64,000 bases of DNA from the NCBI GenBank assembly GCA_027003115.1, contig JALWYS010000065.1:4655-68654 (forward strand), in the 5' to 3' direction. The notes below the pieces were generated by a model, which did no database searches, was not told the origin of the DNA, and worked only from the letters and a program-made list of their open reading frames with translations. The position numbers and the translations under genes were made by a program. Position 1 is the first letter of the stretch. Each line of letters begins with the position of its first letter. Shown one piece after another: positions 11,201-36,618 of the stretch. The DNA comes from Deltaproteobacteria bacterium (GTDB taxonomy: Bacteria; Desulfobacterota; Dissulfuribacteria; Dissulfuribacterales; QOAL01).

Positions 11201-11303
11201 CTCCCACTGTCCCACCATTGCCATATCCATGGGGGGCTTTACAGACGAGGCCATCATGGCCCAGATCCATGCCTTTTCGCCAGAAGGATGCGAGGAGGAA
11301 TAG
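8268..11303 (+). CDS. hdrA: HdrA-like heterodisulfide reductase subunit A; selenoprotein (UGA at 8439-8441) with a tandem two-module architecture of about 1011 aa
   Basis: ATG 8268 opens [68 protein letters not shown]. The frame is the same as ORF 8583..11303 and has no other stop. The TGA sits where the HdrA DCS(M/L)C-ILxPK motif has Cys/Sec. The second half repeats the HdrA N-terminal domain ([12 protein letters not shown]), an FAD fold ([14 protein letters not shown]) and a C-terminal 2x[4Fe-4S] ferredoxin. Confidence 0.88.
8463..8478 (+). promoter_or_regulatory. candidate bacterial SECIS apical hairpin for the hdrA UGA
   Basis: GAGGCC-GGUC-GGUCUC forms a 6-bp stem (one G-U pair) with a GGUC loop. 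The loop starts 30 nt after the U of UGA at 8439. Confidence 0.5.
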
Positions 11304-11306
11304 GGC

Positions 11307-12110
11307 ATGGCGCAGGAAAACGTTTTGGAAAAGGAGAACGAGATGGCCCAGGAGGGTTTTGAACCGAGGATATTGGGTTTTTTCTGCCACTGGTGCTGTT
11401 ACGCTGCTGCAGATGCAGCCGGTGTTTCAAGGTACCAGTACCCCCCGAACGTGCGTGTCATAAGGGTCATGTGTACAGGCAGGATAGACACACGTTTTAT
11501 CCTTGAGGCCTTCAGGTGCGGAGCAGACGGGGTCTTTACCGGCGGCTGACACCTCGGGGAGTGTCATTACCAGTCTGGTAATTACGAGGCAATGATAGTG
11601 GCAGAAACCTGCAAGCAGTTCCTTGCAGACTGTGGCATCAATCCTGACCGCCTTACCCTGGAGTGGGCATCTGCAGCAGAGGCGCCCCGATTCGTGGAAC
11701 TCATTACCGGTTACGTAAACAACATCAAGGAAAAGGGTGAGATAGGCGCTGCGGAAGGGGAGGTGGACTCTGCGACCATCAAGCGCAGGCTCAAGGCAGC
11801 GGTCAAGGCTGCTGAGGCAAGAAAGCCTAGGAGTGCCCTAGGTATGTTGGCCAAGAAGCTTCATAAGGATGGTGAATATTCAAAGGAGGCCATAGCCAAG
11901 GGTGTTTCCTCAAAGATTGTTCCTGCCCTCCGTGCAGAAAGGATCAAGGAGGAGATGATACTTCTCCTTAGGGATGGGCCCATGGATATTGATGCGCTCT
12001 GCAGTGCCCTTTCTGCAAAGAAAGAAGAGGTGGAAAAGCCCCTTTCACAGCTGCAGAAAAAGGGTGTTGTCGAGGAGCAGGATGGAAAGTTCAAACTTAC
12101 AGGCAAATAA
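11307..12110 (+). CDS. mvhD: MvhD-like (methyl-viologen-reducing hydrogenase delta subunit family) selenoprotein with a C-terminal extension; UGA at 11547-11549
   Basis: ORFs 11307..11549 and 11592..12110 share a frame and are joined by an open stretch. The sequence [37 protein letters not shown]...[19 protein letters not shown] aligns to the MvhD GCHxGDCHY motif, with TGA at the first Cys. GAGGAGG lies upstream of ATG 11307. Confidence 0.88.
11552..11589 (+). promoter_or_regulatory. candidate SECIS hairpin for the mvhD UGA
   Basis: The outer stem pairs CCUCG (11552-11556) with CGAGG (11585-11589). The inner perfect 7-bp stem pairs AUUACCA (11566-11572) with UGGUAAU (11576-11582) around a GUC loop. 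The loop lies 26 nt after the UGA. Confidence 0.6.
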
Positions 12111-12132: not shown

Positions 12133-12684
12133 ATGACTGTTCAAGCCGCTAAACTAAACAGTGATTTTATCAAGGACATAGCCGCCCATGAAGGGTGTGA
12201 GACCGCGGCCATGTGTTTTTCATGTGGCTCCTGTAGCGGCGTGTGTCCTGTAGAAAAGGTGGTGGATGATTTTGATCCGCGTAAGATCGTCCATATGGTG
12301 GGTCTTGGTATGGAGGATTCATTGATTAACGGTGAGACCATCTGGGCATGTTCTCAGTGCCAGAGCTGCATACCCGTTTGTCCCCAGAATGTTAGGTGCG
12401 CAGACATCATAAAGGCCCTAAGGGACGAGGCTCTTAAGCGAAAAAGCGTTGATCAGGAGCGTCTTAAGGCTCTTGGTCTCTTTGCAGTGGTTGATCCGGG
12501 AAAGTGCGTGGCCTGTCTCACCTGCGTAAGGCTTTGCCCCTTTGGGGCACCTTCCATGACCGAGGAGGGATACGCCGTGATAGAACCGGATCTTTGCCAT
12601 GCCTGTGGAATATGTGTGCTTGACTGTCCGGCACAGGCTATCTCGCTTGCGCCGTCACTTGAGGCAAAGGGGGCACAACAATGA
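12133..12684 (+). CDS. HdrC-like iron-sulfur protein fused to an extra 2x[4Fe-4S] ferredoxin domain
   Basis: Four CxxCxxCxxxCP-type motifs: CFSCGSCSGVCP, CSQCQSCIPVCP, CVACLTCVRLCP and CHACGICVLDCP. The first pair has HdrC-like spacing. Confidence 0.7.
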   Translation: MTVQAAKLNSDFIKDIAAHEGCETAAMCFSCGSCSGVCPVEKVVDDFDPRKIVHMVGLGMEDSLINGETIWACSQCQSCIPVCPQNVRCADIIKALRDEALKRKSVDQERLKALGLFAVVDPGKCVACLTCVRLCPFGAPSMTEEGYAVIEPDLCHACGICVLDCPAQAISLAPSLEAKGAQQ

Positions 12685-13046
12685 GCAAGATAAAGGGCTT
12701 TTGCTGTAACTATACCCTGAGCGTTGAGGTGGATGCTCTTAAAGAGGAGGGCCTTGTGCCAGAGGATCTTGAGATAGAAAGGCTTCCATGTACCGGGAGG
12801 TTAGAGGTTCCCGAGATACTGGATGCCTTCACCCAGGGGGCTGAGGCGGTTTTCGTTGTAGGCTGCCAGGTGGATAAGTGTCATAACCTTTCAGGTAGTT
12901 ACCGGGCATCAAAAAGGGTCAAGTATGCCAAGAAAATCCTTGAGGAACTTGATATGAATCCAGACCTTGTGGAGATGTTTTTTGCAGGGCGAGGAGAGAC
13001 AGAGCCAGTGGTAGAGGCTGCAAGAACCATGGCATCCAGGGCCTAG
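12681..13046 (+). CDS. mvhD: second MvhD/FlpD-family protein (all-Cys version)
   Basis: The pattern FCCNYT...LPCTGRLEVPEILDAFTQGAEAVFVVGCQVDKCHN parallels the MvhD fold and its Cys ligands. The start overlaps the upstream stop (ATGA). Confidence 0.8.
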   Translation: MSKIKGFCCNYTLSVEVDALKEEGLVPEDLEIERLPCTGRLEVPEILDAFTQGAEAVFVVGCQVDKCHNLSGSYRASKRVKYAKKILEELDMNPDLVEMFFAGRGETEPVVEAARTMASRA

Positions 13047-13097
13047 GATGGATGCCTTCAGGAATTAAAAGCATATAGGCTTTTGGAGTAAGGTCAC

Positions 13098-13766
13098 ATG
13101 ATAATAGCAGAAAGAAAACCCATGAAGGAGCTGCTGGAGATGGTCTCCGATGTAAAGAAGCTCCTGATAGTAGGCTGCCGGGGTTGCGTGGCAGTTTGCT
13201 CTGCAGGAGGCGACAAGGAGGTCAGCATCCTTTCAGCAGCATTGAGGCTTGGAGTTAAAAGGGCCGGTGGTGAAATAGAGATCCATGAAGATACCCTGGT
13301 TCGTCAGTGTGATCCAGAATACATAGATCCATTGAATGACAAGGGGGCAAAGTACGATGCAGTCCTTTCAATGGCGTGTGGCGTTGGGGTCAATTTTGTT
13401 GCCGACAGGTGTCCGGATGTAAATGTGCTGCCTGCTTTAAACACCACCTTTTACGGGGCAAATCTTTCAAGTGGGGAGTGGAAAGAGATGTGTGCAGGCT
13501 GTGGGGCCTGCGTCCTTCACCTGACTGGAGGCCTTTGCCCTGTGGCCAGGTGTGCAAAAAGCCTTTCCAACGGCCCGTGCGGCGGTTCCCAGGGTGGAAG
13601 ATGTGAGATCAACCCCGATGTGGACTGTATTTGGCAACAGATTTACGACAAACTATCCAGTATGAACCGTAAAGAGGAGCTCAGGCAGATTATGCCCATG
13701 AGGGACTGGACTACTGCTGGACATGGAGGGCCACGTCGGAGAATAAGGGAGGACTTGCTACCGTGA
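13098..13766 (+). CDS. metV: MetV, Cys-rich small subunit of acetogen-type methylene-THF reductase
   Basis: The N-terminus MIIAERKPMKELLEMV plus many Cys motifs (GCRGCVAVCS, CAGCGAC, CPVARCAK, GPCGG) are typical of MetV. It sits immediately 5' of metF with an overlapping TGATG junction. Confidence 0.8.
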   Translation: MIIAERKPMKELLEMVSDVKKLLIVGCRGCVAVCSAGGDKEVSILSAALRLGVKRAGGEIEIHEDTLVRQCDPEYIDPLNDKGAKYDAVLSMACGVGVNFVADRCPDVNVLPALNTTFYGANLSSGEWKEMCAGCGACVLHLTGGLCPVARCAKSLSNGPCGGSQGGRCEINPDVDCIWQQIYDKLSSMNRKEELRQIMPMRDWTTAGHGGPRRRIREDLLP

Positions 13767-16700
13767 TGTCTGGAAGCAATTTTGAAAACGTACTTCGTTC
13801 TGGGACCTTTGCAGTCACAGGCGAATTGGGGCCACCCAAAAGCGGCGATATGGAAGTTGTCAGGAGAAAGGCCAGGATTCTAAAGGGCCATGTGGATGCC
13901 GTAAACATCACAGACTGTCAGACTGCAATCGTGCGGATGTCGAGCCTTACTGCAGGTCTCATTGCCCTGTCTGAAGGGGTTGAGCCTGTCATGCAGATGA
14001 CCTGCCGTGACCGTAACAGAATCGGCATGCAGGCAGACATCCTTGGAGCCTCTGCCCTTGGAATAAAGAATCTTCTGTGTCTTACAGGCGACCATCAAAA
14101 GTTTGGGAATCATCCCCAGGCCAAGGGTGTCTTTGATATGGACTCCATTCAGCTCCTCCAGATGGTCAGGGGCATGAGGGATGAAAAACGGTTTCAGTGT
14201 GGCGAGGAGATAAAGAAGGCTGAGCCAAAACTCTTTCTTGGGTGTGCGGCAAATCCCTTTGCGGATCCCTTTGAGTTCAGACCTGTCAGGCTTGCAAAGA
14301 AGGTGGATGCAGGGGCAGACTTTGTCCAGACCCAGATCATATATAATGTGGAAAAGTTCAAGAAGTTCATGGAGATTGCCAGGGATCTTGGCCTCCATGA
14401 AAGGTGCTTCATACTGGCAGGTGTGACACCACCAAAGTCCCTGGGAATGGCCAGGTACATGAAGAAATTTGTTCCTGGGCTGGATGTTACGGACGATGTC
14501 ATACAACGTCTTCAGGACGCCAAAGACCAGAAGGAAGAGGGCATTGACATCTGTGTAGACATCATCAAGCAGGTCCAGGATATTCCAGGGGTTTCCGGTG
14601 TTCATGTAATGGCCATTGAGTGGGAAGAGGCTGTACCCGAGATAGTAAAGAGGGCAGGCCTTTCACAAAGGCCAGAACCCAAGGGCATAGAGCCTGTTCT
14701 TACAAGCGGTAGTGCCATTGACGAGGCAGTTGAAAAGGCCCGCAGGGAGGCCAGGCTTGAGCTTGAGGGCGAGCTTGAAAAGGTGAAGGCCGAGGCACAG
14801 GCCTCAAGAGATCTGCTGGCAAAAGAAAAAGAGAAGGTTGCCTCTGAGATTTCAAATCTCAAGAAGCAGGTAGAGGAGGCAAAGAGCATGGTAAGCCGTA
14901 AGGAGGCTGAAATACAAAAACTTACTGAGGAATTGCAAAAGGCAAAAGAGGCAGCTTTAGACACAGCTGCCCAAGCACCTGCAGCCTCTAAAGAGGCAAT
15001 AGCCGGAGAACAGGAGGCCACCGTTACGGTTTCTTCCGGCGCTTTGAGTGCCAGGGAACAGCAGGTGCTGAGTTCACTCAACAAGGGGCTTGTTGCCCTT
15101 AAGGAAGTCTTGGGGCTGAATGACGCCCAGTTCGAGGCCATGAGACGGTTCCTTGAGGCGGAGTTCATGCTCCAGCTTGGAACTGTAGTAAGGGAAACTA
15201 CACAGGTTGCGGAGGCTCCCCGGGTACAGCCTGAGGCGCCACCTGCCCCGGCTACCGAGGCACCTGTTGTGGAACCAGTGGAGGAGACAAGGCCTGCGGA
15301 AGAAGAAAAACCGCAAAGGCCCAAGGAGGTTGTGAATCTGGTTGCCCAGGGCAATGTGGCCCTTCATGCCAAGGATTTCAAGAAGGCCCTTGAGCTGTTT
15401 AAAAAGGCCCTTGAGATTTCCCCTGAAGATGAGAAGGCCAAGGAAGGGCTTGAAGCGGCAAGAAAAGCCCTTTTAGAGGAGAAAGAGGCAGCAGATAAGG
15501 CAGTGAAAATCAAGGAGGTTGAAGGTCTTCCTCCATGCCCTGAAGAGATAGACCCGGATGAGTGGAAGCGCAAGTGGATAATTCGTTTTACAGCCCGTGG
15601 TAACGTTGCCCTTATGAAGGGCGACTTTGAAACTGCAAAGAAGGAGTTTCAAAAAGCCCTTGATCTTGATCCAGATTATGAAAAGGCAAAGGATGGCCTA
15701 GCCAGGGCCGAAAAGGGCGAAGACATATTCGTACCTGATGTGAAGCCAGGCGAGGTTGAGGCTGCAGCTCCTGCCCCTGAAGAGAAAAAGATAGAGAAAG
15801 AGGTTGTAGAGGCAAAAGAGGAAAAGCCTGTTAAAGAGGAAGCTGTTGAGGAGAAACCGGCTCCGCCAAAAGAGGCAAAGGAAGAGGAAGTAAAAGAGGC
15901 ACCAAAGCCCAAGGCAAAGGTTGAGATAAGTGCTCCTGCCGGAGAGGGCGTCGGAGATCTGGAAGTGGCTCCGTTTCCAAAGGATGAGCCGCCACTTGAA
16001 GAGCGAGCCAAGGGTATTCCTGAGGAGGTTTACAAGGAGCCGTGCACTGGAGTTATTCAGAGTGTGACAATAGGGGATGGAGACAAGGCCATTACAGTGG
16101 GAGGAGAGACGGCCCTGCCTTTCCATGCCTTTGAAGGCGATATTCCCAACCTTCCAAGGACGGCCTTTGAGGTGCTCGATTCCCCACCCGAGGAATGGCC
16201 CGAAGTGCTCCTCAAGTATTATTCCGACGTTGTAAACGATTCAGCGGCCTGGGCCAGAAAGTGTGTCAACGAGTTTGGCGCCCAGGCAATATGTCTGTCC
16301 CTTGATTCAACAGATCCCAATGGTGCCAACGTGTCATCAGCGGATGCCGCCCAGGTGGCCAAAAAGGTCATAGAGGCCGTTGATGTTCCCATCATCCTGT
16401 GGGGCTGTGGTAATGCTGAAAAGGACACCGAGACCTTGCGTGAGATAACAGGGCTTGTTGAAAATAGAAATGTTTGTATAGGTCCTTTGACCGACGCCAA
16501 CTACCGCACCCTTGGGGCAACGGCCATGGCATTTCAGTATCCTGTTGTGGCCTCTACTCCCATAGATGTAAACCTTGCAAAACAGCTGAATATTCTCCTC
16601 GAAAACCTGGGTGTTCATCTAGACCATATCCTAATGGATCCGTCCATTGGCGCTGTGGGTTACGGGCTTGAGTACACCTATTCTGTAATGGAGAGAATAA

Positions 16701-16951
16701 GACTTGCTGCACTTACCCAGCAGGACGAGAAATTGTCACCGCCCATTATATGTAACCTGGGAAGAGAGGTATGGAAGGCCAAGGAAACAAGGCTTCCAAC
16801 CGATGCCGAGCTTGGCGACCAGGAGAAAAGGGGCGTGCTTATGGAGGCAATTACCGCCTCAACCCTCCTTCTTGCAGGGGGAGAGTTGACTGTTATGCGG
16901 CATCCAAAGGCCATAAACCTTACAAACGTCCTTGTTGAAGGGATGTTGTAA
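13763..16951 (+). CDS. metF-acsD: fusion protein: methylene-THF reductase MetF (aa 1 to about 300), a linker of about 450 aa (coiled coil, TPR-like, Pro/Glu/Lys-rich), and corrinoid Fe-S protein small subunit AcsD (aa about 750-1062)
   Basis: One uninterrupted 1062-codon ORF; the start is GTG 13763 or ATG 13766. The N-terminus (FAVTGELGPPKS, NITDCQTAIVRMSS, MQMTCRDRNR, LCLTGDH) is MetF. The C-terminus from about nt 16010 (TVGGETALPFHAFEG, PIILWGCGNAEKD, VASTPIDVNLAKQLN, MDPSIGAVGYGLEYTYS, VMRHPK) is AcsD/CfsB. Confidence 0.85.
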   Translation: MMSGSNFENVLRSGTFAVTGELGPPKSGDMEVVRRKARILKGHVDAVNITDCQTAIVRMSSLTAGLIALSEGVEPVMQMTCRDRNRIGMQADILGASALGIKNLLCLTGDHQKFGNHPQAKGVFDMDSIQLLQMVRGMRDEKRFQCGEEIKKAEPKLFLGCAANPFADPFEFRPVRLAKKVDAGADFVQTQIIYNVEKFKKFMEIARDLGLHERCFILAGVTPPKSLGMARYMKKFVPGLDVTDDVIQRLQDAKDQKEEGIDICVDIIKQVQDIPGVSGVHVMAIEWEEAVPEIVKRAGLSQRPEPKGIEPVLTSGSAIDEAVEKARREARLELEGELEKVKAEAQASRDLLAKEKEKVASEISNLKKQVEEAKSMVSRKEAEIQKLTEELQKAKEAALDTAAQAPAASKEAIAGEQEATVTVSSGALSAREQQVLSSLNKGLVALKEVLGLNDAQFEAMRRFLEAEFMLQLGTVVRETTQVAEAPRVQPEAPPAPATEAPVVEPVEETRPAEEEKPQRPKEVVNLVAQGNVALHAKDFKKALELFKKALEISPEDEKAKEGLEAARKALLEEKEAADKAVKIKEVEGLPPCPEEIDPDEWKRKWIIRFTARGNVALMKGDFETAKKEFQKALDLDPDYEKAKDGLARAEKGEDIFVPDVKPGEVEAAAPAPEEKKIEKEVVEAKEEKPVKEEAVEEKPAPPKEAKEEEVKEAPKPKAKVEISAPAGEGVGDLEVAPFPKDEPPLEERAKGIPEEVYKEPCTGVIQSVTIGDGDKAITVGGETALPFHAFEGDIPNLPRTAFEVLDSPPEEWPEVLLKYYSDVVNDSAAWARKCVNEFGAQAICLSLDSTDPNGANVSSADAAQVAKKVIEAVDVPIILWGCGNAEKDTETLREITGLVENRNVCIGPLTDANYRTLGATAMAFQYPVVASTPIDVNLAKQLNILLENLGVHLDHILMDPSIGAVGYGLEYTYSVMERIRLAALTQQDEKLSPPIICNLGREVWKAKETRLPTDAELGDQEKRGVLMEAITASTLLLAGGELTVMRHPKAINLTNVLVEGML

Positions 16952-17005
16952 AGGGGTTGTAAATAAAGACGCAAATTTTTGTACATAATTTAGAGAGGAA
17001 AAAAT

Positions 17006-19213
17006 ATGTCCAAGATTATCTGTTCAGCAGCAATAAGAGGTGCCCACAAGATTGTGGATATGGCCGAAGAAAAGTATGAGGAGGCCCTTAAAAAGTATGG
17101 GCCTGAGCAGGAGGTGGCCTTTCCGAACACGGCCTACTACCTGCCAATCATATACAGTATGCTTGGCGCGCCTGTTAAGCAGCTGGGGGATATGAAAGAG
17201 ATATTTCAGGAGTGCAGGAAACTTCTTCCACCTCCTGTAAGTGACCATGTGTGGCTGCCTTACTTGGCACCGGCTCTTGATGCCGGTATGGCCACCTTCT
17301 TTGCTGAGGAGATGTTTGAGGCCATAAGATACATAGATGACCCTCAGTTTTATACCAAGACAGAGGATCCCCCTGCCAGTGGCAACTACTGGCTTGGGGC
17401 TGCCGACGATATCATCTTCAGGAAAAGGGGTGTGGAGTTCGTTGACGGAACGGCCCCGGGCTTTGCTGCAATTCTAGGTTCACCCGCTGATGCTGAAGAG
17501 GCAGAGAAGATAGCAACGGAACTTCAGGAGAAAAACCTCTATGTCTTTTTACACGATCAGACAGACGGAATCTATTTCCCTGACCAGCTTCTTAAGAGGA
17601 ACATCCAGATTGGATGGTCCACAAGGCTTGTTCCCTTTGGGCCCACCTACACCTCGGCAGTTTTCTCCATTGGTTTTGCATGCCGTGTTGCCCTGGCCTT
17701 TGGTGGAATTCAGCCAGGTGATTACAAGGCAAATCTCCTGTACAACAAGGATCGTACATTTGCCTTCGTGATAGCATTTGGGCCTGTTTCCGATGAGTGG
17801 TACGCCAATGCTGCCGGTGCCATAAACTGGGGCTTCCCAACCATATCAGATTGGGATATCCCAGAGGTGCTGCCATCGGGTATATGCACCTACGAGCACG
17901 TAGTAAGCAGGGTGCCACATGACGAGATTGTTCAGAAGGCCATTGAGGTCAGGGGCCTTAAGGTTACGGTTTCTAAGATAGACATCCCGGTATCCTATGG
18001 CCCTGCATTTGAGGGCGAACGAGTGCGTAAGGATGATCTCTATCTGGAATGTGGTGGCGGCCGTACCCTTGGCGTTGAGGTCTTGGTATCAAAGGATATG
18101 GACGAAGTGGAAGATGGCAAGGTGATCGTGGAAGGTCCAGAGATGGACGAGGTTGAAGAAGGCGCTAAGCTTCCCCTTGCCATACTGGTTGAGGTCGCAG
18201 GAAGGCAGATGCAGCCTGACTTTGAGCCGATCCTTGAGCGCCAGTTCCATCACCTGATCAATTACGCACAGGGCATAATGCACATTGGCCAGAGAAACAT
18301 CATGTGGCTTAGGGTGAGCAAGAGCGCCATTGAAAAGGGATTCAAGTTCGAACACATCGGCCGAATACTACATGGAAAGCTTCACCAGGATTTTGGCGCC
18401 ATTGTGGACAAGGTTCAGGTGAAGATCTACACAGAGGAAGAGAAGGTCAAGGAGGTATTGGATCTTGCCAAGCAGGTTTACGCTGCCAGAGATGAGCGCC
18501 TTGGCTCCATGACGGACGAAAGCGAGGAGGTCTTCTACTCCTGTACCCTTTGTCAGTCTTTTGCTCCGAGCCACGTCTGCGTCATCACCCCTGAGCGCGT
18601 TGGGATGTGCGGGGCCTACAACTGGCTCGATGGAAAGGCCTCCTATGAGATAAATCCCACGGGTCCTAACCAGCCCATTGAAAAGGGCAAGTGCATTGAC
18701 GAAAAGCTTGGCCAGTGGGAGGGCATAAACGAGTTCGTGAAACAGGCATCCCGAGGAAAGGTGGAAAGGGTCAGCGCCTACTCCCTCATGGTTGACCCTA
18801 TGACTGCCTGTGGATGCTTTGAGTGTATAGCCACCATGCTTCCCATGTGCAATGGTATCATGATTGTAAACCGTGACTACATGGGCATGACACCCAGTGG
18901 AATGAAATTTACCACTCTTGCGGGAATGGTTGGTGGCGGCCAGGTTACCCCAGGATTTCTTGGTGTTTCCAAGCATTACATCTGTTCGAGGAAGTTTATG
19001 AAGGCAGAAGGGGGGCTAAAAAGGGTCGTCTGGATGCCAAAGATGCTCAAGGAAGAGTTGAGGGAGCGTCTCCAGGAAAGGGCCGAGGAGATTGGAATCC
19101 CCGATCTCTTGGACCTGATAGCAGATGAGGAAGTGGGTGTATCTGAGGACGAGGTCTTGAAGTATCTGCAGGAAAAGGGTCATCCGGCACTTTCCATGGA
19201 AAGCGTTGTTTAA
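17006..19213 (+). CDS. acsB: acetyl-CoA synthase (CO-methylating; ACS alpha, A-cluster subunit)
   Basis: 735 aa. The N-terminus IRGAHKIV...AFPNTAYYLPIIY and the A-cluster ligand region TACGCFECIA are diagnostic of AcsB. Confidence 0.95.
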   Translation: MSKIICSAAIRGAHKIVDMAEEKYEEALKKYGPEQEVAFPNTAYYLPIIYSMLGAPVKQLGDMKEIFQECRKLLPPPVSDHVWLPYLAPALDAGMATFFAEEMFEAIRYIDDPQFYTKTEDPPASGNYWLGAADDIIFRKRGVEFVDGTAPGFAAILGSPADAEEAEKIATELQEKNLYVFLHDQTDGIYFPDQLLKRNIQIGWSTRLVPFGPTYTSAVFSIGFACRVALAFGGIQPGDYKANLLYNKDRTFAFVIAFGPVSDEWYANAAGAINWGFPTISDWDIPEVLPSGICTYEHVVSRVPHDEIVQKAIEVRGLKVTVSKIDIPVSYGPAFEGERVRKDDLYLECGGGRTLGVEVLVSKDMDEVEDGKVIVEGPEMDEVEEGAKLPLAILVEVAGRQMQPDFEPILERQFHHLINYAQGIMHIGQRNIMWLRVSKSAIEKGFKFEHIGRILHGKLHQDFGAIVDKVQVKIYTEEEKVKEVLDLAKQVYAARDERLGSMTDESEEVFYSCTLCQSFAPSHVCVITPERVGMCGAYNWLDGKASYEINPTGPNQPIEKGKCIDEKLGQWEGINEFVKQASRGKVERVSAYSLMVDPMTACGCFECIATMLPMCNGIMIVNRDYMGMTPSGMKFTTLAGMVGGGQVTPGFLGVSKHYICSRKFMKAEGGLKRVVWMPKMLKEELRERLQERAEEIGIPDLLDLIADEEVGVSEDEVLKYLQEKGHPALSMESVV

Positions 19214-19228
19214 GAGGAGAAAAGGATC

Positions 19229-20584
19229 ATGGGTCTTACAGGGATAGAAATCCTGAAAATGCTCCCCAAGAAAAACTGCGGGGAGTGCGGTGTGCCCACG
19301 TGTCTGGCCTTTGCCATGAAGGTTGCAGCTGGGCAGGAGGATATTGGTGCATGTCCCTACGTTTCTGACGAGGTCAAGGAGAAGGTTGGTGAGGCCAGTG
19401 CCCCGCCTATCCGCACCGTCACCCTGGGTAGTGGGGACCACAAGTTCCAGGTTGGAGGAGAGACCTGTCTATACAGGCATGAGAAGCGCTTTGAACATCC
19501 AACAGGGCTTGCTGTCCTGGTTACTACGCAGATGGATGACGAAGAGGTGTCCCAACGGCTTGCCAGGTTCAATGCACTTCGTTACGACAGGGTTGGCGTT
19601 GAGTTAAAGGCAGACCTTGTTGCAGTAAAGGACCAGGGCGGGGATGAAGCGGCCTTCAAAGCCCTTGTAGAAAAGGTCAGGCAGGATTGCCCAGATGCGG
19701 CCATCATTCTCATGAGTGAAGATCCCCAGACCATAAAGGGTGGTGCAGAGGTTTGCGGTGAGCACAAGCCCCTTCTTTATGCAGCTACCCCATCCAATAT
19801 GGATGATATGGTTACGGTTGCAAAGGAGACAGAGTGTCCCCTTGCCGTAAAGGGAGCCAATATCGGGGAGACCGCGGAGCTTTCAGAGAAGATCCAGGGC
19901 GAAGGGTTAAAGGATCTGGTTATTGATACTGGTGCAAGGACCATCAAGGCAGTTTTTGAGGATCAGGTTGTGTGCAGGAGGGCTGCCATAAAGCACAAGT
20001 ACAAGCCCTTGGGTTTCCCAACCATCACCTTTCCTTGTGAGATGACAGAAGATGCCCTTACAGAGGCCATGCTAACCTCTGTACTTATTGCAAAGTACGC
20101 AGGCATCTGCGTGCTTTCAGATATTCAGGGGGATACGCTCTTTCCACTCCTGCTTGAGCGGCTCAATATATATACTGATCCGCAAAGGCCAATGGTGGTT
20201 CAGGAGGGTATTTACCCAATTAACGGACCTGATGAAAATTCCCCGGTCCTTATCACCTGTAACTTTTCACTCACCTACTTTATCGTTTCTGGTGAAATTG
20301 AGGGCTCCAAGGTGCCTGCATGGCTCCTTATCAAGGACACAGAAGGCCTGTCGGTCCTTACAGCTTGGGCTGCCGGAAAGTTCAGCGCAGACCTCATCGC
20401 CCAGTTTGTCAAGAAAAGCGGCATAGAGGAGAAGGTGAAACACAGGAGCCTGATAATACCCGGTTACCTTGCCTCCATTAAGGGAGAGCTGGAAGAGGAA
20501 CTTCCAGACTGGAAGATTCAGATCGGGCCCAGGGAGGCAAGCCATCTGCCTCCGTATCTAAAGAGCTGGCAGCCTGAGGGCTGA
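19229..20584 (+). CDS. acsC: corrinoid iron-sulfur protein large subunit
   Basis: The N-terminal [4Fe-4S] motif is LPKKNCGECGVPTCLAFAMKVA. Length is 451 aa, with a GAGGAG RBS. Confidence 0.92.
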   Translation: MGLTGIEILKMLPKKNCGECGVPTCLAFAMKVAAGQEDIGACPYVSDEVKEKVGEASAPPIRTVTLGSGDHKFQVGGETCLYRHEKRFEHPTGLAVLVTTQMDDEEVSQRLARFNALRYDRVGVELKADLVAVKDQGGDEAAFKALVEKVRQDCPDAAIILMSEDPQTIKGGAEVCGEHKPLLYAATPSNMDDMVTVAKETECPLAVKGANIGETAELSEKIQGEGLKDLVIDTGARTIKAVFEDQVVCRRAAIKHKYKPLGFPTITFPCEMTEDALTEAMLTSVLIAKYAGICVLSDIQGDTLFPLLLERLNIYTDPQRPMVVQEGIYPINGPDENSPVLITCNFSLTYFIVSGEIEGSKVPAWLLIKDTEGLSVLTAWAAGKFSADLIAQFVKKSGIEEKVKHRSLIIPGYLASIKGELEEELPDWKIQIGPREASHLPPYLKSWQPEG

Positions 20585-20616
20585 AAAATTATCAAAATCA
20601 AGGATGAGGAAGAGAC

Positions 20617-21507
20617 ATGTACGTTCAATGTATAGCTGAAAGCATCAACATAATGGGAAAGCGTACAGGTGGGGCCATGAGGGCCAGGGATCCTAGGCCT
20701 ATTGTGGAAATGGCCCACGAGGAGGTGGCCTTTGGCGGCGATTACCTTGACCTGAACATTGGGCCTGCCAGGAAGGACGGCACCGAGCTTATGCCGTGGA
20801 TAGTGCGTGTTGTAGAGGAGGTTACTGATTGCCCGCTCTCCCTAGACACAACAAACGCAGATGCCCTTATAGCCGGTATGAAGGCAGCCAAAAATCCAAA
20901 GCAGCACATTATGAACTCCATATCCCTTCAGCCTGAAAGGATGAAGAAACTCATACCGGTTGCCGCCGAGACGGGCTGTTATGTGGTGGGGCTTCTTTGG
21001 GGGGTGGATGGAATGCCCAGGGATTCCAACGAACGGGCTGCCATGACGGTGGATCTTACAATGGCAATGAATGAGGCGGGAATTCCCAATGAAAAGATAC
21101 TCATAGACCCAATTGCAACTCCCATAACACTTGGTTCCGAGCAGGTCATGAGCGGATTAGAATTCATGGCCATGCTACCGGATATCGCCCCTGGGGTTAA
21201 GAGCACCGTTGGCCTTTCCAACGTATCAAATGGGGTTGAGGCGCATCTTCGTCCCTATCTCAATAGGGCCTATCTTGCAATGCTCATGAAGGTTGGTATC
21301 TGGTCGGCGATAGTTGACGCCTATGACCAGGAACTTATTGAGCTTGCCCACGGGGAGCGCTCGGAACTGCTAAAGCTTGTCCATGATATAATGGATGGCA
21401 ACGAACCCGATCCTTCAACCCTTTCCGACAAGGAAATGGAGTACTACAAAACAACACGGGTTCTCATGGGAAAGACCATTTTCTCAGAATCCTGGTTGGA
21501 ACTTTAA
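20617..21507 (+). CDS. acsE: methyl-THF:corrinoid/Fe-S protein methyltransferase
   Basis: Pterin-binding (DHPS-like) motifs: AESINIMGKRTGGAMRARD, YLDLNIGPA, LSLDTTN, NSISL and GLSNVSNG. Confidence 0.88.
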   Translation: MYVQCIAESINIMGKRTGGAMRARDPRPIVEMAHEEVAFGGDYLDLNIGPARKDGTELMPWIVRVVEEVTDCPLSLDTTNADALIAGMKAAKNPKQHIMNSISLQPERMKKLIPVAAETGCYVVGLLWGVDGMPRDSNERAAMTVDLTMAMNEAGIPNEKILIDPIATPITLGSEQVMSGLEFMAMLPDIAPGVKSTVGLSNVSNGVEAHLRPYLNRAYLAMLMKVGIWSAIVDAYDQELIELAHGERSELLKLVHDIMDGNEPDPSTLSDKEMEYYKTTRVLMGKTIFSESWLEL

Positions 21508-21576: not shown

Positions 21577-24500
21577 ATGGCTGAATCAATCAAAATCACG
21601 CTAGACGGCAATGAGATCAAGGCCAAAAAGGGTCAGACAATCCTTCAGGCTGCAAGGGAGGCGGATATCAAGATACCCACCCTTTGTTATCTTGAAGGAG
21701 GCAGTGATTCTGAACGGCCCTGTCTTTTGTGCATGGTTGAGGTGGAGGGGATTGGCAGGGTCAGGGCATGTAATACCTTGGCTGAGGATGGACAGGTCAT
21801 AACTGTTCATTCCAAGGACCTGGATGCCTTCAGAAAGGAGAGACTCACAAGGCTTGCGGAGAGCCACTACGGGGACTGCCGGGCTCCATGTAATCTTACC
21901 TGCCCAGGCGGCATAAACGTCCAGGGATACGTAAACCTCATTGCCAAGGGCGAATACAAGGCTGCCCTCATGCTCATAAAGGAGAAAAATCCCCTGCCCA
22001 TTTCCGTTGGCAGGGTTTGCCCCAGGTTTTGCGAAACAAGGTGCAGGAGGATACTCCTCGATGAGCCCATAGCCATAAACCACTTAAAACGTTTTGTTGC
22101 CGATTATGCCTCTGAAATGGGTTTCAGGGATGATGTCGTGGGAAAGCCTACAGGAAAGAAGGTGGCTATAATCGGTGGGGGCCCTGCAGGCCTTTCCTGT
22201 GCCTATTTCCTTAGAAAGCAGGGGCATGATGTCACTATATTTGAGGCAGAGGAGAAGCTTGGAGGGCTTTTAAGGTATGGAATTCCCGGCTACAAGCTTC
22301 CAAACAAGGAGGTGGACAAGGAGGTCCAAAATATCCTAAATCTTGGTGTCCACGTAAAACTTCAAAAGAAATGGGGCCAGGATTTCACCATCAAGGACCT
22401 TAAAGATCAGGGCTATGGGGCGGTCTTCATTGCTACCGGACTTTCAAGGCAGAAGAAGCTTGAGATAGAGGGGGCAGAGCTTGCCATTTGCGGTCTAAAG
22501 TTTCTGAAAGAGGTGAACAAGGGTGGAGCCCCTGCGGTTGGCGAACAGGTCCTGGTGGTTGGAGGCGGTGACATAGCAGTTGACGCTGCCAGAAGTGCAC
22601 GGCGACTTGGCGCTAGAAACGTCACTGTCATCTATCCTCGTTCGCGGGTTGAGCTTCCGGCCCACCAGCGGGAGATAGAGGAGGCGGAAAAGGAAGGGGT
22701 TCAGTTTTTCCTCATGGCAACCCCCCTTAAAATCACTGAAGAAGAGGATAAGCTGAAGGTGGAGATGGCCCGGACAATCCTGGACGAGCCTGATGAAAGG
22801 GGAATCAGGCACCCAATCCCAATGCCGGGTTCGCGTCTTTACTGGACAGGAGATACAATTATTTCAGCCCTGGGCCAGGAAGGCGATCCAACATTTCAAA
22901 GCTTTGGTGAGATCGAGGCCTCCATCAAGCTTACTCCAAGAAAGACCATAAAGACCCATCCAAGCACCATGAAGACCAGTGTGGATGGCATTTTCGCAGG
23001 AGGTGACGCAGCCACCGGTTCAAGGACAGTGATACAGGCCGTTGCCGGAGGAAGAAGGGCTGCTGAATCCATCCACGAATACCTCATGAAGGAGAAGGCC
23101 GGGATAACAGAGGCCAGATTCAACTTCACCAAGGGCAAGCGCTTTGAAGACGTGGACATGCACAATTTCGACGGCTATTCTATTCAGCTGAACGAAGTAA
23201 TGCCTTCCAGGCCTCCTGAAAGACGGATCGGTGATTTTGACGAGGCAAATCTTGGTTTTTCAGAAGAGATGGCGGTTCGCGAGGCCAAAAGGTGCCTGCA
23301 ATGCGGATGCCTTGGGCTTTCAAAGTGCACCTACAGGGAGCTTTGCGTTGATTACAAGGTCAAGGCAAATGTTTCCCATACAAGGCTTAAATATCCAGTT
23401 GACAGAAGCCATCCCTTTATTGTCATCGATGCAAATAAGTGCATAGGCTGCACAAGGTGCTTGAGAAGCTGTAAATATGGTGCCCTTGAGCTAGACATCA
23501 AATGGGATGAGAAGTCCCAGGTCATTCAGGATGTATCCATCAGGCTTAATGAAAAATGCGTATCATGCGGGGCCTGTGTGGATGCCTGTCCTACTGGTAC
23601 CCTTTCCAAGCAGGACCTTGTAATTCCACTTTTTCCAGAGCAGGTAACCAAGGTAAAGAGCGTTTGCACTTACTGTGGCACGGGCTGTAGCCTTGACGTG
23701 GTTTCCAAGTATGGGGCCATTTTGGAGGTGAAGGCCGATTCGTCAAGACCGCCAAATTGGGGACAGCTGTGTGTAAAGGGCAGGTTCGGTTACACCTTTT
23801 ACAGGCATGAGGAGAGGCTCAGAAGGCCCCTGGTAAGGGATAACATCGATGAGCCTTTCAGAGAGGTGGATTGGGACGAGGCCCTTCGGGTGCTGGCTGC
23901 CCGCCTTAATGCCATTCGGGACAATTTCGGCTCTGATAGCGTTGGAGTCCTTGCCTCATCAAGGTGTACCAACGAGGAAAACTATCTTCTCCAGAAGCTT
24001 GCCCGTGCAGCCTGGGGCACAAACAATGTGGATAACTGTGCCCGGGTCTGACACGCTCCTTCTGTCAGCGGTCTGCTGGCGACACTGGGAAGCGGAGCAG
24101 CAACCACACCCTTCGAGCAGATTATAGGTACGGACTGTCTCTTGATCTGCGGCTCTAACACCACTGAGGCCCATCCCATCGTTGCGCTCAAGGTGAAAGA
24201 GGCAGCAAGGACAGGAACCGACCTCATAGTCATTGACCCAAGACGAACAGAAGTTGCCTCCATTGCCCAAGAACAGCCAGGCGGTTTGTTCTTGAGGGTG
24301 GCGCCTGGAGGAAACATCCCCCTTCTCAACTCCATCTTGTACTGCATCATTGAAGAGGGGCTAATAAACGAGGACTTCATATCAAAACGGACAGAGCATT
24401 TTGAGGCCATAAGGAAACATGTAAAGGATTACCCCCCTGAAAAGGTGTATCAGATAACGGATGTTGATCCGGAACTAGTGAGGGCTGCTGCTCGAAAGTA

Positions 24501-25692
24501 CGCCTCCTCCAAAAATTCCCTTATCCTCTACGGCCTTGGAGTTGCCGAGCACAAGGGTGGCACGGCCGGGGTAATAGCTCTGGCAAACCTTGTCCTGGCA
24601 ACAGGTCAGGTAGGCAAGCCCCACAGCGGCATAAATCCGCTAAGGGGGCAGAACAACGTGCAGGGAGCCTGCGACATGGGGACCTTGCCTTACACCTTCC
24701 CGGGTTATCAGCCAACTGATGATCCAAAGGTGCTTGAGAAATTTTCCAATGCCTGGGGAGTGAGCAGTCTTCCGGTATCAGACGGCCTTCTTGAGCCCCA
24801 GATGTACGATGCGGCCCTTGAGGGCCGATTCAAGGCACTTTACTGTGTAGGTTACGACCCTGCCCAGACCCAGTCTAACATTGGCAAGGTGCACGAGGCG
24901 CTAAAGGCCATGGATCTTGTGATGGTTCAGGATCTCTTTCTCACGGAAACAGCCAAGTTTGCCCATATTGTCCTGCCATCTGCCTGTTTCTATGAAAAGG
25001 ATGGTACCTTTACAAGTGGTGAGCGACGGGTAAGACGTGTCAACAAGGTCATAGATCCGCCTGGAAAAGCAAAGGCAGACTGGGAAATAATTTGTCTCGT
25101 TTCCCAGGCCACTGGATATCCCATGTTTTATACTGGGCCTGAGCAGATAATGGCAGAAATAGCAAGGGTGACCCCGGCCTATGCAGGTATCAGCTACGAC
25201 AGGCTTGGGGACAACGGAATGGTCTGGCCATGTCCCTCTCCCGACCATCCGGGAACCCCACTTCTCCATACGGGAAGTTTCCCGAGGGGTAAGGGTACAT
25301 TTGTGCCTGTCTCCTATATCATTCCAGAAGAGGAGGCTGATGAAGAGTATCCCTTTGTTCTCATTACCGGAAGGCGGTTGGAACATTACAACAACGGTTC
25401 CATGACTAGACGCTGCGAGGGATTTGACCGGCTGTGTCCAGAGGAGCTGGTGGAGATAAATCCGGAAGATGCGGCACGGCTCAAGGTGGAAGATGGAGCC
25501 GTGGTTAAGGTGGAATCAAGACGTGCCAGAATAAAGGCCAGGGTCAAGGTCACAGAAAGAAGTAAGCCTGGGGTGGTGTTTATGACCTTCCACCATCAGG
25601 ACACCTTGACCAACTTCCTTACGAGTCCTGGCATGGACGCCAAGACCCTAACTCCTGAATACAAGGTGTGCGCAGTGAGAATCAAACCATAA
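21577..25692 (+). CDS. fdhA: selenocysteine formate dehydrogenase, single-polypeptide fusion (2Fe-2S ferredoxin + GltD/NfnB-like NAD(P)H-FAD module + 4Fe-4S domains + Mo/W-bisPGD catalytic domain); UGA at 24049-24051
   Basis: ORFs 21535..24051 and 24142..25692 are in the same frame with an open junction. The junction reads NNVDNCARV-TGA-HAPSVSGL, the classic FdhA Sec site. The N-terminus has CYLEGG...CLLC...C (2Fe-2S). Next come CRAPCNLTCPGG...GRVCPRFCETRC, VAIIGGGPAGLSCA and VLVVGGGDIAVDAA (GltD-like), then CIGCTRCLRSC, CVSCGACVDACP and CTYCGTGCSL. I prefer the start MAESIKI at 21577. Confidence 0.9.
24064..24080 (+). promoter_or_regulatory. SECIS hairpin for the fdhA UGA
   Basis: GUCAGC-GGUCU-GCUGGC forms a 6-bp stem (one U-G pair). 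The loop starts 21 nt after the UGA and closely resembles the E. coli fdhF apical GGUCUGC element. Confidence 0.75.
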
Positions 25693-25886: not shown

Positions 25887-27020
25887 ATGCTCCTGGCACG
25901 TCTTGGCCACGATGTTCTTTTGTTGGACAGGGCCCGGTTCCCAAGGAAAAAGACGTGCGGGGATGGACTTACTCCGAGAGCCGTTGACACCTTGGCTCGT
26001 TTGGGACTTGAGAAAAAGATTGCCTCCCTTTCTTTCAAGGTTCTTAGTGCGCGACTCTATGCACCCTCAGGCACAGTATTAAGGGCCAGTTTTGCCAATT
26101 CTGTAGAGCCGCTTCCTCCAAGAGGATACGTGATACAACGTGTGCATCTTGATGATCTTTTGCGGCTTGAGGCCATAAAGGCCGGTGCCCGCTTTGTGGG
26201 CGGTGCGCAGGTGACTGATTTTATATGGGATAACCAGAGGGTAAAAGGTGTAAAAGTCCATCTGGACGGGGTCGAAAAGGAGGTGCGCTCCTTCGTAGTC
26301 GTTGTGGCAACTGGGGCTTCTTTGCATCTCTTGAAGCGGCTCGGGATTGCTCCTGCTAGCGGTGTTGATCTCTTTGCAGTCAGGGGATACTGGGAGGGCG
26401 TAAAGGATATCGATGACGCCCTTGAGTTTCACTTTGTGCGCAATATCTCCCCTGGTTACTCGTGGCTTTTTCCCGTAAGTTATGATGTGGCCAATATAGG
26501 CATCTGCTTTTATCCTGGGAGGAAATTTCCACGTATCTTACCTCGAAAGATGCTCATGGAACTTTTGTCATCCCACCCATATTTCAGGAAGCGTCTGGAA
26601 AACGCCCGCCCCATGGGCAAGATACATGGCTATCCCATCCGGACAGGTTTCCCACTCCAGCCAGTTAGTGGTAAAGGCTGGTTAATCGTTGGAGAAGCGG
26701 CAGGACTTGTCAACCCGGTGACAGGTGAAGGCATTGATCTGGCAATGGAGAGTGCAGAACTTGCAGCCCAGGTTATTTATCAGGTCATTGGCTCTGGAAA
26801 CAGGGATGGGGACACGTTACGCCTTTATTCCAAAAAGCTTCATAGCCGTTTTAGGGGCATGTTTTACGCCCTTCGTTTGATTCGTCCAGTGGCCCTGCAC
26901 CCACAGTTACAGGAATTCGTACTTAGAATGGCCACAAAACGTCCAGGTCTTAAGAGGCGAATCATTCGTATCAACCTGGGGCTTGTCCCAGTACACCAAA
27001 TACTCTTTCCATGGTTTTAG
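25887..27020 (+). CDS. FAD-dependent geranylgeranyl-reductase-family oxidoreductase (start codon unresolved)
   Basis: Motifs RFPRKKTCGDGLTPRA and GEAAGLVNPVTGEGI. The in-frame sequence upstream of ATG 25887 encodes VDVVVIGAGPGGSVTA (25839-25886), the dinucleotide-binding motif. There is no ATG, GTG or TTG between the upstream stop (25797) and 25887. Confidence 0.7.
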   Translation: MLLARLGHDVLLLDRARFPRKKTCGDGLTPRAVDTLARLGLEKKIASLSFKVLSARLYAPSGTVLRASFANSVEPLPPRGYVIQRVHLDDLLRLEAIKAGARFVGGAQVTDFIWDNQRVKGVKVHLDGVEKEVRSFVVVVATGASLHLLKRLGIAPASGVDLFAVRGYWEGVKDIDDALEFHFVRNISPGYSWLFPVSYDVANIGICFYPGRKFPRILPRKMLMELLSSHPYFRKRLENARPMGKIHGYPIRTGFPLQPVSGKGWLIVGEAAGLVNPVTGEGIDLAMESAELAAQVIYQVIGSGNRDGDTLRLYSKKLHSRFRGMFYALRLIRPVALHPQLQEFVLRMATKRPGLKRRIIRINLGLVPVHQILFPWF

Positions 27021-35481: not shown

Positions 35482-35901
35482 ATGCCTGCAACCATACTCG
35501 TCAAGTCCCAAGGCCCTGTTTCAATACAAAGCATAAAAAGAAGTGCTAACTGGCTGCTAAGGAGCCAGTTGCTTTCCCATAAGGAACTCACTGTTGTCCT
35601 TACGGACAATGCCGGAATAAAGGAAATAAACAAAAGATGGTTTAAAAGGCCCTGGGCAACAAATGTCATCTCTTTCCCGTCTGAGGAGCCTGGCATTCTG
35701 GGGGACATTGTCATATCCGTTGAAAGGGCAAGGGAAGAGGCCCAGGAGGGGCTGACCACTGTTCAAAACCGGACCATTGAGCTTTTGATCCACGGCTTTG
35801 TCCATCTTTTGGGGTATGATCATGAGCTTGGCCCTCATGAAGAAAAACGCATGGCCAAAAAGGAATTTGAGCTAAAGAGGAACCTTTTCAGGAGGAGTCT
35901 A
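35482..35901 (+). CDS. ybeY: rRNA maturation endoribonuclease YbeY (no stop codon of its own; reads in frame into pdxJ)
   Basis: Zinc-binding motif [11 protein letters not shown], plus TNVISFP and GDIVIS. The reading frame continues without a stop into the pdxJ coding sequence. Confidence 0.8.
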
Positions 35902-36618
35902 ATGGCAGATCTTTGTATAAATGTTGATCATGTGGCAACCATTCGTCAGGCGAGGGGTGGGGTGGAACCTGACCCGGTTGTAGCCGCAGGTATTGTGGAG
36001 CTTGCGGGTGCGGATGGGATCGTTGTGCATCTAAGGGAGGACAGGCGCCACATACAAGACAGAGACGTGCGTCTGCTCCGCCAGATCGTTCAGACGCGCC
36101 TTACCCTTGAGATGGCTGCAACTGAAGAGATGCTTGGAATTGCTGAAGACATCAAACCGGATATCGTGACCCTTGTTCCTGAGAAGAGGCAGGAGCTTAC
36201 CACAGAGGGGGGGCTGGACGTATTGGCGCTTGAAAAATCCATTACGGATGCCGTTAAAAGGCTTCACGATGCAGGTATTCCGGTGAGCATATTCATTGAC
36301 CCTGAAAGGGACCAGATCGAGGCCGCCAAAAGGACAGGCGCTGAATGCATAGAGATACATACAGGCCGTTATGCCGATGCGGAAAGTGAGGAAGAACGGG
36401 AGAAGGAGTTCGATTCAATAGTGGAAATGGCAGGATTTGCCGCTGATATTGGCCTCAGGGTACATGCAGGCCATGGGCTCAACTACCAGAACACCGGAAG
36501 GCTCGCCGCAGTCAGTGAAATAGTGGAATTCAGCATAGGCCACTCTGTTATTTCAAGATCTGTTTTTGTGGGCATTGAAAGGGCAGTGAAGGAAATGCTT
36601 GCAATTGTAAAGGGTTAA
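35902..36618 (+). CDS. pdxJ: pyridoxine 5'-phosphate synthase
   Basis: [42 protein letters not shown] and HAGHGLNY. An internal AGGAGG (35890-35895) lies 6 nt before ATG 35902. Confidence 0.9.

Follow-up and report, generated by a model that had tools for sequence, protein, structure and literature searches.

Desulfurivibrio dismutans encodes a 'fused FdhAB protein' (RS08735), described in a 2025 paper, whose gene lies next to those of an HdrL-like HdrA and of MvhD and is co-expressed with Wood-Ljungdahl (WL) pathway genes (PMC12142623). The authors proposed that this protein reduces CO2 at the expense of NAD(P)H, HdrL being the entry point for electrons (PMC12142623). Here, we analyze a selenocysteine (Sec) relative of this formate dehydrogenase (FDH), encoded on a 64,000-nucleotide stretch of contig JALWYS010000065.1 (the window) from an uncultured deltaproteobacterium of the phylum Desulfobacterota. 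From its domains, the gene product is predicted to be a single protein of about 150 kDa that joins a [2Fe-2S] domain, a GltD-like FAD/NAD(P)H module, further Fe-S clusters and a Mo/W-bis-pyranopterin guanine dinucleotide (bis-PGD) FDH domain. Judged by its intact active site, it would be a catalytically live version of the scaffold known from StnC and NfnA.

In StnC and NfnA themselves, the Fdh-like domain is catalytically inactive with an incomplete pterin site, and the cluster branch that leads to it (NfnA A2-A4-A5; StnC C1, C2) is considered a non-functional evolutionary remnant (PMC10482914, PMC11829005). Electrons in NfnA follow the path FAD-A7-A6-A3-A2-A1-B1, in which the [2Fe-2S] cluster is the exit to the partner subunit (PMC11829005). 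The NADPH-dependent FDH of Moorella thermoacetica, a WL-pathway CO2 reductase, is split over sfrB2-sfrA2-fdhF3 (PMC13040438). This system and Geobacter SfrAB combine GltD-like NADPH and molybdopterin subunits, modules that the window FDH also has, but distribute these functions over separate polypeptides. In the methanogen Fdh-MvhD-HdrABC(-Fmd) complex (7BKB), an FDH is linked via MvhD to the flavoprotein HdrA, and its catalytic subunit is homologous to the window protein (560 bits). The methanogen FdhB, however, is F420-type and not GltD-like, and the methanogen HdrBC reduce the heterodisulfide CoM-S-S-CoB, whereas the bacterial complex considered here is putative and derived from genes alone; no HdrB (CCG-domain) gene was found among the open reading frames (ORFs) of the WL cluster that were scanned. 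FdhH of E. coli (1AA6/1FDO) has 715 amino acids and a single [4Fe-4S] cluster, lacks any flavin or NAD(P)H module, and delivers its electrons to hydrogenase 3. Its core aligns with the window FDH over 680 residues (568 bits).

Architecture of the fused formate dehydrogenase

The gene comprises the following elements.

21577-25692, + strand: fused selenocysteine formate dehydrogenase gene ('FdhAB' type), 1371 amino acids plus stop (single frame, Pfam/NCBIfam order, collinear homologs)
21583-21810, + strand: N-terminal [2Fe-2S] domain, Fer2_4, with Cys37/49/52/65 (PF13510, E = 8e-18)
21877-23052, + strand: GltD/NfnB-like module of Fer4_20 (two [4Fe-4S]), FAD fold and NAD(P)H fold (PF14691, PF07992)
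23293-23799, + strand: four further [4Fe-4S] motifs (Pfam Fer4 families and Molybdop_Fe4S4; Cys invariant)
23815-25674, + strand: Mo/W-bis-PGD catalytic and dinucleotide-binding domains with predicted Sec825, His826 and Arg1023 (PF00384, E = 1e-65; PF01568, E = 2e-28)
24049-24051, + strand: in-frame UGA, very likely read as selenocysteine, residue 825 (alignment to FdhH Sec140; Cys/Sec pattern of homologs)
24063-24081, + strand: predicted selenocysteine insertion sequence (SECIS) hairpin, 7-bp stem of nt 15-21 and 27-33 counted from the U of UGA, loop GGUCU at 24070-24074 (comparative evidence)

Translation gives a frame of 1371 codons in which the TGA is the sole internal stop. The ORF list holds the gene as two halves, one of 838 amino acids from ATG 21535 and one of 516 amino acids from TTG 24142. 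Homologs place the start at the equivalent of ATG 21577, leaving 824 amino acids before the UGA. The Pfam domains on the product are Fer2_4 (residues 3-78), Fer4_20 (101-182), Pyr_redox_2 (194-492), a Fer4 dicluster (614-676), Molybdop_Fe4S4 (PF04879; 691-741), Molybdopterin (747-1177) and Molydop_binding (1260-1366). Residues 696-1369 match the NCBIfam model TIGR01591 (Fdh-alpha) over profile positions 2-672 of 672 with 829 bits, the curated cutoff being 666, and residues 4-632 match PRK12814, a 657-residue model of a 'putative NADPH-dependent glutamate synthase small subunit', with a score below its cutoff. An earlier prediction made from the letters alone (the original prediction) had described one frame of about 1371 codons interrupted only at TGA 24049 and encoding, in order, a 2Fe-2S domain, a GltD/NfnB-like module, 4Fe-4S motifs and a Mo/W-bis-PGD domain. 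Translation and domain annotation bear this out, and the description was right in every detail, including the 838- and 516-residue pieces and the quoted motifs, all of which are found (DCRAPCNLTCP...GRVCPRFCETRC, GGGPAG, GGGDIA and NCARV-U-HAPSVSGL).

The four cysteines of the [2Fe-2S] domain are invariant in 30 homologs, and the domain aligns with the [2Fe-2S] domains of NfnA and StnC. The further [4Fe-4S] motifs read CxxCxC..C (573-584), CxxCxxCxxxC (622-632 and 661-671) and, next to the pterin site, CxxCxxxC..C (697-732; C697, C700, C704 and C732). Their cysteines are invariant in the homologs and aligned to cluster ligands of NfnA/StnC, and every Cys ligand of the one [2Fe-2S] and six [4Fe-4S] clusters of these proteins has an aligned counterpart in the FDH. 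The GltD-like module carries GGGPAG in its FAD fold (residues 200-205), GGGDIA in its NAD(P)H fold (329-334) and the segment YPRSRVELPA (353-362), and matches the large subunit of Pyrococcus furiosus NfnI (5jca_L) with 289 bits. Conservation extends to both Rossmann GxGxxG/A folds and to R355/R357. G200, G202, G205, G329, R339 and R343 are present in 100% of 119 family members and R355 in 97%, while K171 (100%) and R233 (93%) are the counterparts of StnC K170, a lysine close to the FAD-proximal cluster, and R239. The region thus keeps its nucleotide-binding residues on alignment, a check that the original prediction had proposed.

End to end, the N-terminal 740 residues align with NfnA of Caldicellulosiruptor (9bov, 534 bits), an archaeal NfnA (9n5u, 498 bits) and StnC of Sporomusa ovata (8oh5, 484 bits). 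StnC (8OH5/8OH9) and NfnA (9BOV/9BP5, 9N5U/9N5V) are therefore like the FDH in this part, in the cluster ligands, in the GltD-like site and in K171/R233. They are unlike it in that their Fdh-like domain is dead and docked on a HydBC-like bifurcating module, whereas the domain is intact in the window protein. Its active-site segment scores 241 bits to FdhH as opposed to 42 to NfnA (9bov) and 32 to StnC (8oh5). The predicted U825-H826 pair aligns to X140-H141 of FdhH (1aa6), and R1023, located in RGQNNVQGACDMG, aligns to Arg333. When the 824-residue N-terminal part was used as query, the best 150 representatives at 50% identity consisted of about 123 long proteins without FDH active-site motifs (a StnC/NfnA-like class set by a regular-expression test and approximate in number), 6 intact Cys-type fused FDHs, 9 Sec-type fused FDHs that stop at the UGA, 7 proteins of 473-691 amino acids classed as stand-alone N-modules (some of them partial) and 5 other or partial proteins. 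Stand-alone N-modules of 655-691 amino acids share 39-43% identity with the N-terminal part of the FDH.

The in-frame UGA and its SECIS hairpin

The best 120 database matches to the FDH were taken as a homolog census. They comprise 76 uninterrupted proteins of about 1300-1400 amino acids and 42 that stop at the Sec site, such that at least 118 protein clusters share the fusion. A Cys occupies the UGA position in each of the uninterrupted homologs in which the motif is locatable (68/68). The 42 interrupted products represent the closest relatives (65-90% identity), have a length of about 820-850 amino acids and all end in ...NCARV; they were therefore cut by gene callers at the same UGA. At the DNA level, the TGA is kept in 19 distinct sequences of close relatives, and conservation of the reading frame continues over the following 30 codons, where most changes are synonymous. 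As had been foreseen, gene callers annotate the FDH as two pieces of 824 and 479-499 amino acids, both on the contig of the source metagenome and in relatives. A rough neighbor-joining tree suggests several switches between Sec and Cys within the fused-FDH family.

The sequence GUCAGC-GGUCU-GCUGGC is located at 24064-24080. Codons +5 to +9 after the UGA (GUC AGC GGU CUG CUG) show zero synonymous variation in the 19 clade sequences; by contrast, nearly all remaining codons in the 30-codon stretches flanking the UGA vary. Among 33 distinct UGA-form FDH genes, the stem is standard-paired in 91% of cells, a share that falls to 22-53% upon sliding the partner strand. Four of the seven stem pairs display double-sided changes (e.g., GUCAGC/GCUGGC versus GUGGCC/GGCCAC), and the covariation score of 0.54 compares with 0.23 in shuffles, none of which (0/500) reaches the observed value. 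Homologs with a Cys codon (TGY) do not have the hairpin. The GGUCU loop lies at nt 22-26 after the UGA, exactly the position that it has in E. coli fdhF (NC_000913), which was taken by accession for this comparison; a blastn search of E. coli genomes with the Sec region gave no match. Comparative evidence of this kind indicates that the hairpin is a conserved SelB-type SECIS, beyond what chance would produce. Together with the Cys/Sec pattern and the alignment to FdhH, it makes selenocysteine very likely at UGA 24049. The fdhF-like SECIS and the synthesis of one polypeptide by read-through of a Sec UGA, both claimed originally, are hereby supported. On the sequence evidence, none of the three findings on which the original prediction was to fall (separate products, absent Sec insertion or lost nucleotide-binding residues) has come up.

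Distribution and gene neighborhood

Full-length collinear homologs measure 1349-1400 amino acids and are 44-66% identical to the FDH. The fused enzyme is common in sulfur bacteria, namely in sulfur-disproportionating and cable-bacteria Desulfobacterota. The homologs of D. dismutans, Dissulfuribacter thermophilus, Dissulfurirhabdus, Thiovibrio and Ca. Electronema/Electrothrix have the same domain order and length at 52-61% identity and, like the window locus, are accompanied by genes for HdrL-type HdrA, MvhD and the WL pathway. These named homologs carry an active-site Cys, whereas the window FDH and its closest relatives (65-97% identity) carry a predicted Sec and a SECIS. The nearest named genome, with 97% identity, is a metagenome-assembled genome (MAG) of a deltaproteobacterium (JALWNK010000062). 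A profile search of genome contigs, which was dominated by ordinary FDH alpha subunits of about 900 amino acids owing to generic peptide patterns, supplied Cys- and Sec-form comparators including a species-level match (L004). The novelty of the fusion that the original prediction implied does not hold: the ortholog survey finds a widespread architecture, whose Cys forms bear the NCBI annotation 'formate dehydrogenase subunit alpha' and which has been published (PMC12142623). Sec-containing HdrL, MvhD and FdhA were catalogued in Desulfobacterium autotrophicum in 2009 (PMC2702500), and a putative oversized FDH-alpha homolog, possibly the one found here, was detected in the Dissulfuribacter proteome (PMC13490349). 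New in our analysis are the predicted Sec-type clade of the fused FDH, which has a well-supported SECIS and is held in databases only as fragments, and the explicit structural link that the alignments draw to StnC and NfnA.

More distant members were also encountered. Aeromonas sobria, a gammaproteobacterium, encodes a collinear Cys-type homolog (NZ_NKWE01000023; L007, 6001-10107) with about 40% identity over residues 5-1369. Since no hdrA or mvhD occurs within 6 kb upstream of it, the fused architecture extends beyond both the Desulfobacterota and the Hdr context. In two Pirellulales MAGs (L035 and L075), mvhD, metV, metF, a GltD-like N-module and FDH follow each other, preceded by hdrA in L035 only. 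A gap of about 700 nt between the N-module and FDH matches denotes either a split version or an extra insert, and the FDH is of the Sec form in L035 and of the Cys form in L075.

A co-directional WL cluster in the window ends with the FDH gene and has the order [NiFe] hydrogenase-like ORF, Fhs, FolD, carbon monoxide dehydrogenase, HdrL (Sec), MvhD (Sec), Fe-S protein, second MvhD-like protein, MetV, MetF-TPR-CdhD fusion, AcsB, AcsC, AcsE and FDH. A promoter and terminator scan around the FDH gave chance-level counts and no terminator between acsE and FDH. Upstream of the FDH, the relevant features are the following.

8268-11303, + strand: HdrL-type HdrA, 1011 amino acids when read through TGA 8439 (...NDCSL-U-ILAPK), likely partner (Pfam: two FAD/NAD folds and Fer4)
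11343-12110, + strand: MvhD (FlpD) with TGA 11547 (GG-U-HLGECHY), likely electron connector (PF02662, E = 5e-49)
12133-21507, + strand: rest of the co-directional WL cluster between mvhD and FDH, i.e., Fe-S protein, second MvhD-like protein (12681-13046), MetV, MetF-TPR-CdhD, AcsB, AcsC and AcsE (Pfam)

The UGA of HdrL replaces the second Cys of its N-terminal CSxC motif, and the ORF list gives just 906 amino acids from TTG 8583. A candidate hairpin (GAGGCC-GGUC-GGUCUC) is present at nt 25-40 after this UGA. In MvhD, the UGA stands for the first Cys of GGCHxGxCHY, and the whole FlpD profile is matched only upon read-through. Its candidate hairpin (AUUACC-AGUCU-GGUAAU) is located at about nt 20-36, but the minimum free energy structure from RNAfold prefers another fold.

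Gene order was compared across nine fused loci with long flanks, namely the window and L152-L159. The mvhD gene is in the same cluster in 9/9 loci and an HdrL-type hdrA in 7/9 (in L155, the sequence upstream of mvhD lies beyond the locus edge), with direct abutment on the FDH in five. The hdrL-mvhD pair directly precedes the FDH in Dissulfuribacter thermophilus, Thiovibrio, Ca. Electronema and Dissulfurirhabdus (L152, L153, L154 and L156), and follows it directly in L158. In L152, L154 and L156, the stop codon of mvhD and the start codon of the FDH overlap; in Thiovibrio, the two codons have one base in common. The window HdrL is 60-62% identical to the hdrA products abutting the fused FDH in L152-L154, and the WL gene order of 12133-21507 recurs in L155, L157 and L159. 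HydBC-like subunits were not found in L152-L159.

A few neighbors of these FDHs carry possible traces of Sec usage. Downstream of the Cys-type FDH of L158 (14188-17865), hdrL (62 + 894 amino acids) and mvhD (68 + 121 amino acids) are split at the UGA positions of the window genes; hence, FDH, HdrL and MvhD appear to switch between Sec and Cys independently. Directly after the Cys-type FDH of D. thermophilus (L152, 12247-14232) lies a selB-like gene (GTP_EFTU and WHD_2nd_SelB), and directly after the fused FDH of Dissulfurirhabdus (L156, 14130-15179) a selD-like gene (AIRS/AIRS_C). Such neighbors hint at a Sec-using past or at Sec-type neighbors.

Other genes of the window deserve mention. In the 1062-residue ORF at 13763-16951 (+), MetF is joined to TPR repeats and to a domain like CdhD, the small subunit of the corrinoid Fe-S protein, and fusions of methylenetetrahydrofolate reductase with CdhD of 822-842 amino acids recur in L158 (3544-6072) and L159 (2954-5422). 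At the head of the WL cluster, the 589-residue ORF at 660-2429 (+) contains Oxidored_q6 (hydrogenase small-subunit-like) and [NiFe] large-subunit segments and is unusually short or fused. The large subunit of the [NiFe] hydrogenase ends in a Cys-type motif (DPCITCAVH), which ruled out a Sec there. A geranylgeranyl-reductase-like flavoprotein gene (25887-27020, +) sits between FDH and hslVU, likewise in L001, and is missing at that position in L002/L003, a 90%-identical relative. Finally, a 378-residue ORF at 35482-36618 (+) spans the endoribonuclease YbeY (23-131) and PdxJ (144-375), either as a fusion or as two genes merged by the ORF definition.

Electron partners and competing readings

Based on homology and gene order, the window gene probably encodes a cytoplasmic Sec-containing Mo/W-bis-PGD FDH, acting as a CO2 reductase, that is fused to an NfnA/StnC-type input module and is not autonomous but exchanges electrons with HdrL via MvhD. 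The input module would consist of the [2Fe-2S] domain, the GltD-like FAD/NAD(P)H site and two of the six [4Fe-4S] clusters, with the other four placed between this module and the pterin site. By homology to the cryo-EM structures of NfnA and StnC, electrons from NAD(P)H may pass by way of FAD and the two GltD clusters to the central clusters, and from there over the pterin-proximal cluster to the Sec-Mo/W site. Exchange with the HdrL-type HdrA through MvhD would most plausibly take place at the retained [2Fe-2S] port, as suggested by gene order only. HdrL and MvhD would likewise be selenoproteins in this organism.

A number of observations count against this picture. No tRNA gene, including that for tRNA-Sec, was found in the window, and selA, selB, selC and selD are absent from its ORFs as scanned to about 49 kb. 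Rfam gives no match in the whole window at gathering thresholds. In a focused scan, SECIS_3 matches 24046-24104 over its full model length, but with 26 bits (E = 3e-4), below the gathering score. The folding energy of the hairpin is no better than that of shuffles (RNAfold, 52-nt segment, z = -0.63), and the SECIS case therefore rests on the comparative data. With regard to the 'NAD(P)H' enzyme of the original prediction, the GltD-like nucleotide site is kept and NADPH is the likely dinucleotide by homology, but NADH may be used instead, because the YRR motif of NfnA/StnC reads YPRSR here. The link to HdrL and MvhD is based on gene order and on co-expression reported for one relative. In L157, mvhD has no hdrL directly upstream, and about 9.5 kb of WL genes (metVF and acs genes) separate mvhD from FDH in the window, whereas hdrL-mvhD and FDH abut in the named homologs. 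In more distant fused or split loci (L007, L009, L022, L034 and L053), no hdrA or mvhD is seen in the fetched flank of up to 6 kb.

The alternative that survives best, albeit unlikely in our view, is an autonomous all-in-one NAD(P)H:CO2 oxidoreductase without a partner, in which case hdrL-mvhD serve only MetFV in the reduction of methylene-tetrahydrofolate (methylene-THF). One chain does carry all cofactor sites for transfer from NAD(P)H to CO2, and NADPH-driven CO2 reduction is near equilibrium at the cellular NADPH potential (PMC13040438). Nonetheless, hdrL-mvhD abut the FDH with no metF in between in L152, L153, L154 and L156 and come directly after it in L158, the mvhD and FDH genes overlap in three of these loci, and the [2Fe-2S] domain, which forms the exit to the partner subunit in NfnA (PMC11829005), is invariant. 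Because of the clustering with mvhD and hdrA and the retained exit domain, an autonomous enzyme is possible but not best supported, and the 'all-in-one' minimal catalyst of the original prediction has become doubtful. Its appeal as a minimal CO2 catalyst is also smaller than first stated, since the enzyme requires Sec insertion, maturation of the pterin cofactor, seven Fe-S clusters and possibly partners.

An extension of the partner-dependent FDH favored here is more tentative, and we think it improbable as it stands: the fused FDH may be an arm of an uncharacterized bacterial flavin-based bifurcating assembly, HdrL-MvhD-FdhAB, possibly together with MetFV. NAD(P)H would enter at the GltD-like FAD and/or at HdrL, and the HdrA-type flavin would split the electron pair. 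The low-potential electron would then reach CO2 at the Sec-W/Mo site and the high-potential electron methylene-THF (MetFV) or DsrC.

It is highly improbable that the UGA is a genuine stop that yields two proteins (824 and about 480-516 amino acids) or a pseudogene, even though gene callers annotate the FDH as split and Sec machinery genes are not seen in the scanned part of the window. The second protein would lose the catalytic Sec-His pair and lack a conserved start, two other cluster genes carry a UGA exactly at known Sec/Cys positions, and neither the in-frame conservation beyond the UGA nor the invariable Cys of the uninterrupted homologs nor the covarying SECIS agrees with termination. 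Least credible of all is a StnC/NfnA-type large subunit of a Bfu-family NADPH-dependent transhydrogenase with a merely structural FDH-like domain, an option that accounts for the collinear N-terminal 740 residues and for the about 123 of 150 scaffold representatives without FDH motifs but was rejected because the active-site segment matches FdhH, with Sec, His and Arg kept and the trusted cutoff of TIGR01591 passed, because the window ORFs of 150 amino acids or more scanned from 660 to 49052 include no NuoE/NuoF-type gene (StnAB/NfnBC, HydBC-like), and because the upkeep of a costly Sec codon and SECIS makes no sense for a dead site.

Nothing in a fused Sec FDH is surprising to specialists in FDHs or selenoproteins, but the family is biochemically untouched, and to our knowledge no member has been purified. 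Since gene callers systematically split the gene, the Sec-type FDHs that serve the WL pathway in uncultured Desulfobacterota are overlooked or recorded as fragments, and the HdrL and MvhD genes of the window cluster suffer the same annotation loss. The scaffold of the bifurcating transhydrogenases StnC and NfnA has live FDH relatives, as predicted from the intact active site. In cable bacteria and in sulfur disproportionators that live autotrophically, the fused FdhAB is a candidate for the step that reduces CO2, and its conserved linkage with HdrL and MvhD offers a testable hypothesis for how this step is energized. If true, a bifurcating FDH would be a living functional counterpart of the branch considered an 'evolutionary remnant' in StnABC and NfnABC, and by means of HdrL-MvhD-FdhAB the first step of the Wood-Ljungdahl pathway would be energized without ferredoxin or H2.

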